Shown: piece by piece, positions 50,901 through 53,900 of the stretch | Layout: every line of letters begins with the position of its first letter | Position numbering within the stretch: the stretch's first letter is position 1 | Assembly: GCF_003704095.1 (NCBI RefSeq) | Contig: NW_020847472.1 | Span: forward strand, 496,001-560,000 | DNA: 64,000 bases | DNA from: Pocillopora damicornis | Taxonomy: Eukaryota | Direction: 5' to 3' | Notes under the pieces: generated by a model | Told to the model about the DNA's origin: nothing | What the model saw: only the letters and a program-made list of their open reading frames with translations | Database searches by the model: none | Made by a program: the position numbers and the translations under genes

Positions 50901-53900
50901 CGGTAGGAAGATGCGGTTTCATCGTCTTTGTGAAGATATGCTGTTTTCTTCAATCATGGCTAGGTGTCAAGTTTTAAAATAGTTGACAATAAATGATTTG
51001 GTAGAGCTCTGAATTCACGACAAAAAGTTCAAAATTATCGCGATCACTTTGCTCGAAATTCTTTGGCTTCAAGAGATTTTTTGACATTTTTCTTCCTTGT
51101 TCTACTTAGGGTAATTAAACAAAGGCAGTATTTTACTCCAATAATCACTGAAAGTGAACTTTCATCAATCCAAGCCGTTGAAGGTAGTCACTGCCTTCTC
51201 TTGGGCACAACGCAGGATCAACTCTTACTGTGGTGAGTTGTTGATATTGTCATCATCATGATTATAACTACCGCCAATAAAATCATTGTTCTAATCACTG
51301 GTCGTTAATGATTTTCGTATAAAGCTTTGTGAGGCGCAGTGAGAGGAATGAGATATCTCTACATCGCATCTCATTTCTCAACTGGATCGTGGAGAAAAAC
51401 GATTTCTCCATGGCTGAATTTTTCAAGAACTATACCCCTTTGTCCCTATATACTTTCTACTTCAACAATGGTACGATTATCTTTATCTTCTTTCTTTAGG
51501 AAGGCCAATTGTACGGCACAAACGCTAGGAAAAGTTGTAGTTATTTTAATGACATTAGGACAATTTTAAAATCAACTTACATTTTAATGCGCCTTTGCCT
51601 GTCTTCGTAATCGGTATTGCTTGAAACATTGAATTTGTATACCATGTTCAGTTATAGAGCGACTTAACAAAATAGAATGAATTACAAGGTTACTTTAAAA
51701 ATATTTTCCGGAAATTACACAGTAGTCTTAGTTTTTGCCGTTAGTAAAGTCGTCGTACACTTTGACGTGAAACTGTCCTCATCATTCGTGTTACATCTCA
51801 TGTGGCTTTTTTGTGGTGAACCTGTGGCTCCGGCTAGTTAGTATTTCGTTGTGCATCTTTGGCAGCCCGAGGTTCCATCGCGATTCAAGGAACCAATTCT
51901 ACTCAGTACATCCCGGCAAAAGTTTGCTCTCTTACTCGGGACGTCATACCGGTCCATTCCAATTCTGATGGCAACCTGATCCCTGGCGTCGTCGATGCCA
52001 CCCTTTTGAACGGTGTTGGCGGCAAACAGCAGCACCCAGCGTCGAATGCTGGCAGCGCGGCCGACGTAGCCATAGTGGATGTTTCCAGGTACATCGTAAT
52101 TTACGCATCGTCCACACAGGGTCACAGTTTTTGGGCAACGATAGGGACATGATCGTCGTCTGAACGTCTGGGTGCATTTGTAATCCCACGGCTTGCAGTT
52201 AGCGACAAGGTTGGCAAACTGAACGAGACACCTGGGCCAGAGAAAAGTGTTGTACCAGCTACGGCAACTTCTGATGGCTCTGTTGTTTCTGTTACGGTTC
52301 ATTTGCCTTATAAGCCAAGATGTCACGTCCGGTCCACATCTGTCGCGAAAAAAAATTGATTTTCTTCAACATCTCTAGCTTTTGGCCTACAGTTTATTTT
52401 AGTTAGTAAATGAGGGGAAGGTCCCTCACCTTAACATTAGAAATGCCTTAAGTTTTCTGCGCGTAGCTGTTCGTCCTACCTTCGACTTCTTCGACGCCTT
52501 GGATCTTCGCTGACAACATCCGGATCCGTGTAAGGATCTTCCAACTCAGCGTAACTTCCATCCTTCTCAGGGAGGTCCAGCTCTTGAATGCCTGGATCTT
52601 CCAACTCAACATAACTTCCATCCTCTCTAGGGAGGTCAAGCTCTTGAATGTCTGTAAATGTTAGAATTGTTAGCAGAACACGGCTTTCCCTTTTTGTTGG
52701 TAGCTTCTGAGCCCTGGAGTGATCAGAGCGACTAGGGCTTAAGATCGTACTGCCTTATTTCAAATTTGCTTCAAATGCTGTTTGCTGTGGTTTCTATCCA
52801 GTGCCACTGCGTTTTTGAAAATACTACATTTCCCGATCTGAAAAAGAAAAATCCTAGCTAAAATGTTTCCCTTTCAGGCCACCCACCCAACTATAGGTTC
52901 ACAATTCTGATTCAAAACCAACTTCCAGAAGAAAAAGAAAGGCAGTCTGCTCTGGGGCTTTTTTTTATCCGACCAAATATCTCGCTTGTCTCTTTTCCAG
53001 TTTACTGGGCAAGAATCGGTGCATTTTCAGAAGGGTTATAGTTAAACATTCTTCAAACTATTGTCCGGAACTATTGTAATCTTCTACGTCTTTCATTACT
53101 AGTTGTTCTTTTCTCTAAATTTGTTTTTTTGTATTATTCATGTAAAGAAATATTTTCCATCAAAAGGGGATCTCCATTGCATAGTTTGTACCATCACCGA
53201 CTTTATAGAGTGCGTCCGAAATAGGAATTACCTTCTTCCGTAAAACCGAGGCCATTTGTCACCAGAATGACAAACATCAGAGGCAGCATAGATACCAAAC
53301 GACTTTTCGACATCATTTTTGTGTTACTCTGTTTGTTAAGAAGAGCAAACACTTTAAGGAATGAACTGGAAATTTTTTTATATATGGTTTAAGTAAGTGC
53401 GTCCTTCGTCATCGTTGTCGCCTGTGTCAGTAATACTAATCAGTATTGCCTGAGCTGAAACGATCTGAAATCGCAATACTGTGACGGGCTTACTTTATCT
53501 ATTCTAAGCCTTTCTTCTGAAGTGTAGTATTAATATTTATCTTTAAAGTGGTCTGTGGTGCTGCTTAACTAATTGCTTTTTAAGCACAAAATATATCCAT
53601 GTATCAAGTAAGAGAGGTTGCTATCACACCCTGCTACTAGCACTGGATTGGAAAATAAAAAAAAACTGTTGAATGCAACTACAACACAGATGATAAAAGT
53701 ACATGTGGAACGCTGCTATTTTTTTTTCTTGTGGGGAGGGGGAGGGAGCGCATCGGAGAAACATGCAGAAAAGGTGTAAAGGTAGCCTTGTTTCATCTGA
53801 TAACTTGAGAAAGTTATTTTTAATCAAGGACGAGTCAAAAATATATTTAAAACGTGTCAGCTCAATATTTATCGTTTAAAGCTGCCTACAGTTACTTCAA

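Follow-up and report, generated by a model that had tools for sequence, protein, structure and literature searches.

The window, a stretch of 64,000 nucleotides of the Pocillopora damicornis genome, contains a spliced and expressed gene whose third exon encodes an Ntox44 domain of bacterial toxins. Its product falls into one clade with the homologs of other stony corals, and its identity to a gene of Stylophora is at the level expected of orthologs. The interpretation that we tentatively prefer, at just short of an even chance when taken as a whole, is that this coral gene carries the tip of a bacterial toxin as a secreted antibacterial enzyme that acts on the outside, or envelope, of bacteria.

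The gene lies on the minus strand. The features are as follows, with positions in the window:

53232–53316, minus strand: exon 1, with the start codon and the predicted signal peptide (85 nt; 28 codons plus 1 nt)
52652–53231, minus strand: intron 1, GT-AG, phase 1 (580 nt; joint present in RNA contigs)
52480–52651, minus strand: exon 2, acidic propeptide leading to a polybasic predicted convertase site (172 nt)
52534–52654, no strand assigned: two-copy 60-nt tandem repeat within exon 2
52340–52479, minus strand: intron 2, GT-AG, phase 2, between propeptide and toxin domain (140 nt)
51838–52339, minus strand: exon 3, basic predicted mature protein of 166 residues with 12 Cys, and stop codon (502 nt)
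51943–52221, minus strand: match to Pfam Ntox44 (PF15607) with the DxK, GNxxxG and DxxxD motifs (profile search)
51589–53454, minus strand: single RNA contig joining the three exons (the contig ends are not transcript ends)
51233–55714 (joint 51231/55714), plus strand: intron of the spliced host gene that encloses the antisense toxin gene (three of four runs)

The exon boundaries give a coding total of 759 nt, that is, 252 amino acids plus stop. Translated separately, exons 1, 2 and 3 match, letter for letter, the 252-residue protein P0084 from residues 1, 30 and 87 onward, respectively. This protein is recorded for both P. damicornis and P. verrucosa, and one source names it "Bacterial toxin 44 domain-containing protein". 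The joints 52339/52480 and 52651/53232 (CT..AC on the plus strand) are both present in RNA contigs of three out of three runs in one search and of four out of four in another. Together these are five different runs of five studies, two of them recorded as RNA (X14 and X7) and three guessed to be RNA (X1, X5 and X6). A 1152-nt contig of X14 contains exons 1 to 3, and run X17, the kind of which is not recorded, spans the stretch without joints. The preliminary description, made from the DNA letters, had proposed that three GT-AG exons are spliced into one reading frame of 252 residues; the exact matches to P0084 and the presence of both junctions in RNA contigs of the five studies bear this out. 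One copy of the gene was found in the genome, and the exon-3 variants in RNA contigs are silent in four out of four cases.

The encoded protein has the prepro layout that had been described for it. Exon 1 contains a hydrophobic stretch (hydropathy peak of 3.0 in a 9-residue window), exon 2 is acidic (18 Asp or Glu among 56 residues) with an arginine run at its end, and exon 3 is basic, with a pI of 10.0, 29 Lys or Arg residues and 12 Cys. The product is predicted to be secreted, and cleavage of the precursor at the arginine run is likely. The sequences WDYK, GNIHYG and DDARD all lie within exon 3; DxK, GNxxxG and DxxxD are the Ntox44 motifs given by Zhang et al. 2012 (PMC3482391, seen in part). 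The earlier assignment of exon 3 to Ntox44, together with the Pfam match that it had anticipated, holds up well, as PF15607 matches over profile positions 1–103 of 104 with 48.5 bits against a cut-off of 24 (E value of 1.3e-12) and all three motifs are present. The predicted structure of the exon-3 domain, with a mean pLDDT of 92.4, consists of ten helices and one short hairpin, a model in agreement with the all-alpha fold expected for Ntox44.

A plus-strand GT..AG joint, 51231/55714, spans the entire toxin gene in three of four runs, and the toxin gene is therefore nested antisense within an intron of a host gene, as had been supposed. The host gene (window 45402–59200, plus strand), which by eye might be PALB2-like, has a single open exon of 2.2 kb in addition to small spliced exons, at least nine in number, of which the final ones resemble a WD40 domain. 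Its intron holds a short interspersed repeat (window 55200–55400) matched by hundreds of RNA contigs. Farther away, at window 42893–44264, a short-chain dehydrogenase exon on the minus strand stands head to head, almost gapless, with a single-exon PITH-domain gene on the plus strand. Host-gene exons beside the Ntox44 exon were seen in one (L047) of 21 short coral-like loci, most of them of too little length to show such exons; here and below, coral-like means placed with named coral records by sequence and tree, most matches being nameless. At positions 579–1027 of L047, near-contiguous antisense matches to three host-gene exons end about 35 nt before the Ntox44 exon. The nesting may be ancient; in the L047 copy, the exons for signal and pro region must be located elsewhere.

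A first protein search gave 53 matches among 60 candidates and one for longer proteins 29 among 96, and the Ntox44 profile search gave 2007 representatives at E values up to 0.001, of which 150 were listed. Named eukaryotic records in the protein searches are from stony corals only, namely Pocillopora, Stylophora, Oculina and Orbicella. Beyond the corals, the nearest relatives are the C-terminal tips of proteins of bacterial type (eCIS core in 15 and RHS repeats in 3 of 69 aligned rows), and named genomes with such tips are those of two Nitrospirota, one planctomycete and Smithella. The best 24 long bacterial-type matches have 39–48% identity across nearly the whole domain. Coral-like sequences group on a single branch in a 78-row tree (35 of 35, support 97/93) and in a 63-row tree (12 of 12, support 99), so that a single transfer fits. 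These comparisons support a bacterial origin of the coral domain, as put forward in the preliminary description: eight-Cys tips of bacterial eCIS and RHS toxins are nearest, and the corals form one clade among bacterial sequences. As to whether the animal copies nest inside bacterial tips, a position inside the eight-Cys bacteria is not favoured over a sister position (AU p = 0.51).

Bacterial Ntox44 tips resemble the coral domain in the DxK, GNxxxG and DxxxD motifs, in a mainly helical model and in eight common Cys. The coral gene differs in that the features of polymorphic toxin systems, a carrier domain and an adjacent immunity gene, are absent and signal and pro exons are found instead, and the coral domain has up to four additional Cys and a far more basic net charge. 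Phages of Paenibacillus have a standalone gene named "bacterial toxin 44" with no coupled downstream gene (L123, 1411–1998).

The transfer has already been published. In the parts of their paper available to us, Levy et al. 2021 (PMC8162421) describe the Stylophora gene as an ancient horizontally transferred Ntox44 that has two homologous introns as well as a signal peptide and shows synteny conserved across three species, and the novelty formerly attached to the transfer is thereby lost. The same authors report expression in the skeleton-forming cells (calicoblasts) of settling primary polyps, propose that the protein clears the settlement substrate, and name the gene's structure and its function as a follow-up still to do. 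A literature search on six accession numbers matched only the review of Levy and Mass 2022 (PMC8913943), which, in the portion seen, names the protein XP_022782305.1. The Pocillopora protein and XP_022782305.1 of Stylophora pistillata belong to the same 90% cluster, are 95% identical over the 166-residue domain and are sisters in the tree (100/100). They share the two introns, the bacterial origin and, going by the hydrophobic stretch of exon 1, a putative signal peptide; the Pocillopora copy differs by a 20-residue duplication in the propeptide, the 60-nt tandem repeat of exon 2 accounting for its 252 residues as compared with 232 in the ortholog. The propeptide, the cleavage site, the host-intron nesting, the eight-Cys donor group and an envelope target are not mentioned in the sections of PMC8162421 and PMC8913943 available to us. 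The venom role raised in the preliminary description finds no support, as the ortholog is reported in calicoblasts and cnidocyte expression is not reported in those sections.

The coral copies share a set of changes. The eight Cys positions common to bacteria are each present in 34–36 of 35–37 bacterial relatives. All coral-like rows have C25 (29 of 29) and C37 (30 of 30), and none of 36 bacteria-like rows has either; C48 and C55 are found in 16 of 32 coral-like and none of 37 bacteria-like rows. The median net charge is +15.5 in 44 coral-like domains versus −1 in 75 bacteria-like domains, the rows being related to one another. Acidic residues outnumber basic ones in the pro region of all nine full-length coral precursors, and in eight of the nine the last residues of this region, adjoining the domain, are KR or RR. 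As regards intron 2, 18 of 21 other coral-like loci have an AG where the phase-2 acceptor lies ahead of the domain, although in one of them, a spliced transcript, the AG is coincidental; two of the three loci without AG read through into a pro region, as would be expected of spliced transcripts. Upstream of position 373 of L034, a long serine/threonine-rich open stretch, and not an acidic pro region, lies in frame before the Ntox44 exon. The records include two distinct copies in Orbicella. In Oculina patagonica they include six near-consecutive locus tags on one contig (ACROYT_G037808, 810, 812, 813, 814 and 815), an arrangement suggestive of tandem copies belonging to two or more paralog types. 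A second coral paralog type (P0126, P0142, P0025 and P0033) is histidine-rich and less basic, with a charge of +5 to +8, and lacks C48 and C55.

Conservation over 145 rows is highest at D52 (100%), K54 (97%), N86 (99%), D116 (96%) and D120 (97%, exon-3 numbering), which we read as a probable metal-dependent site for a phosphate linkage. The motif histidine, H88, is kept in merely 72% of these rows. None of 32 coral-like rows has lost D52, K54, N86, D116, D117 or D120.

In polymorphic toxin systems, immunity proteins are located where the toxin acts. For each bacterial tip, the ORF that comes next on the same strand was taken as the presumed immunity gene, and export was called by a crude hydropathy rule. 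By this rule, the downstream ORF is exported- or membrane-looking at 40 of 55 distinct loci and at 37 of the 43 where it is closely coupled, in a sample of related rows that is biased toward the nearer relatives of the coral gene, the part relevant here. Tips with at least six Cys have an exported-looking coupled ORF at 11 of 15 loci. The corresponding values are 0 of 10 for AHH/LHH nuclease tips, or 0 of 6 when coupled, in what is a small control set, and 10 of 34 for other ORFs of the same loci. The 43 coupled proteins represent 26 families, 20 of them exported-looking; by type, 15 of the exported-looking proteins have one N-terminal helix, 11 a lipobox-like motif and 11 several helices. Non-exported cases include eCIS loci, in which another effector comes next, and one insertion sequence. 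A ten-member lipoprotein-like family lies behind Ntox44 tips at L076, L083, L086, L090, L097, L101, L103, L107, L110 and L111; seven of seven members scanned have no Pfam name, and the family is a candidate unnamed immunity family. Since immunity proteins sit at the toxin target, the exported-looking downstream ORFs point to an envelope target, and the eight conserved Cys would suit a protein active in an oxidising compartment. Reasoning from immunity location to toxin target is also used in section 30 of PMC12419801, a source seen in part. An envelope target for Ntox44 was not found in the portion of the Ntox44 literature that was searched and may be in print elsewhere.

According to the envelope interpretation, an ancestral stony coral would have taken the tip of an eight-Cys toxin of eCIS or RHS type, leaving the carrier and the immunity gene behind, and joined it to two preceding exons, one for a signal and one for an acidic pro region. 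Until a convertase cut, the basic domain would be masked by the acidic propeptide; extra disulfides would keep it stable in the extracellular space, and its positive charge would attract it to the surfaces of bacteria. There, D52, K54, N86, D116 and D120 would hold a divalent metal and break a phosphate linkage of some envelope molecule, e.g., a lipid-linked precursor of the wall or the head group of a lipid. It is plausible that the protein acts against bacteria, and the likely use would be surface clearing beneath the settling polyp, after Levy et al.

A more specific version, whose chance we put somewhat below even, is that the Ntox44 branch borrowed by corals comprises non-RNase envelope enzymes acting on phosphate-linked lipids, possibly as far-diverged relatives of the Lipocone superfamily. 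They would have been refitted as basic, convertase-activated antibacterial proteins with extra disulfides and multiplied in some lineages, on a fold with no solved structure. The Lipocone toxins (SAA, Min-Wnt, TelC; Burroughs et al. 2025, PMC12419801, seen in part) are helical tips whose immunity proteins are membrane proteins or lipoproteins; some of these toxins have passed to animals. Ntox44 resembles them by eye in the spacing of conserved residues, from which the link was predicted and set down before testing, and in its exported-looking coupled ORFs, a feature not specific to Lipocone. In a comparison of language-model features that skipped Ntox44 itself, the nearest named clusters were SAA (0.84), YkzU and DUF6973 (0.81), with all values within 0.81–0.84, which we treat as leads only. 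Profile–profile alignment of Ntox44 with 14 SAA/DUF6973 rows gave hhalign probabilities of 0.1–2% with the best match out of register, the Ntox44 core scored no better than shuffles against the 14-row template, and the fold comparison with Lipocone found no match. In a tentative register set by eye, N86, Q111 and D120 fall opposite invariant H, E and D of the 14 rows; Ntox44 has N, Q, D and I at the positions of invariant H, E, D and N in the sampled rows. Ntox44 was therefore not placed among the Lipocone toxins, these comparisons having found no profile or fold match and N and Q standing for the presumed catalytic H and E. By its alignment with SAA, DUF6973 itself reads as belonging to the Lipocone superfamily; DUF6973, Ntox44 and PF15607 are not named in the main text of PMC12419801 as far as available to us.

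The strongest alternative, a doubtful one though far from negligible, is that the domain, once released, works as a secreted RNase against bacteria, carried by its charge across bacterial membranes to cytoplasmic RNA. RNase activity was predicted for the Ntox44 family by Zhang et al. 2012 (PMC3482391), and the Yersinia PAAR-Ntox44 effector TseR is a divalent-cation-dependent RNase, toxic to bacteria and HeLa cells, according to the part seen of a review (PMC13577199; primary source, Wang et al. 2025, Cell Rep), a report that also speaks against the envelope interpretation. TseR, from Yersinia pseudotuberculosis, belongs to the same Pfam family as the coral protein and is the sole member with a reported activity in the literature searched, where an assay of any coral copy was not found. 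It is likened to the coral protein at the level of the family, and differs in being delivered by injection through a type VI system. The Pocillopora copy retains every motif residue, and the strong basic charge of the coral copies would suit such an RNase. Against it stand the exported-looking genes behind Ntox44 tips as compared with nuclease tips, the incomplete conservation of the motif histidine, and a coral protein without carrier or entry domain. Points against the envelope interpretation are that the downstream genes are presumed immunity genes, that their export is called by a crude rule, with a control of six coupled and ten total loci, that the phage Ntox44 gene stands alone, and that the eight Cys could bind zinc rather than form disulfides. 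The two activities could share one chemistry.

It is improbable that the product is a large, non-catalytic cationic antimicrobial protein, held by disulfides, that binds and disrupts membranes. The prepro layout with its acidic pro region and dibasic site, the gain of charge and the coral-specific C25/C37 pair would all agree with such a protein, and retention of the six acidic, Lys and Asn motif residues in every coral-like row examined for them argues against it. More improbable still is a role in the skeleton, for example in adhesion or in turning over the matrix where calcification takes place, or an action on non-bacterial competitors or prey. The calicoblast expression reported in settling polyps (PMC8162421), the acidic propeptide and the toxicity of TseR to eukaryotic cells (PMC13577199) speak for it; yet the prediction is that the acidic part is removed, cnidocyte expression is not reported in the parts seen of PMC8162421 and PMC8913943, and the expansion of copies in Oculina better suits an immune gene. 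Contamination or an assembly artefact, suggested by nothing but the bacterial likeness of exon 3 (GC of 0.52 and GC3 of 0.57 versus 0.38–0.48 and 0.28–0.54 in six host exons), is ruled out with near certainty by spliced RNA in five studies, the host-intron position and orthologs in four named coral genera; the preliminary description, too, had argued against contamination.

Two known systems offer parallels. The domesticated amidase effectors (Dae) found in ticks, among other eukaryotes, combine a bacterial toxin domain with a signal peptide and are reused against bacteria; their fold is unrelated, their substrate is peptidoglycan and their function has been shown experimentally. Cnidarian prepro antimicrobial peptides of the damicornin type consist of a signal, an acidic pro region, a dibasic site and a basic Cys-rich product. 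The likeness to the latter is one of layout. The coral Ntox44 product is, unlike these peptides, a folded domain of 166 residues and bacterial origin.

With the transfer known, the target is what could matter, and the proposed envelope target makes the follow-up question of Levy et al. directly testable. If the RNase alternative were true, an animal would have re-fitted a bacterial nuclease with charge for self-delivery. If the envelope interpretation is true, it would explain how a secreted coral protein kills bacteria without entering them, would correct the label of RNase over much of a toxin family of 2007 representatives (E up to 0.001), and would provide a simple test for coral settlement defence.
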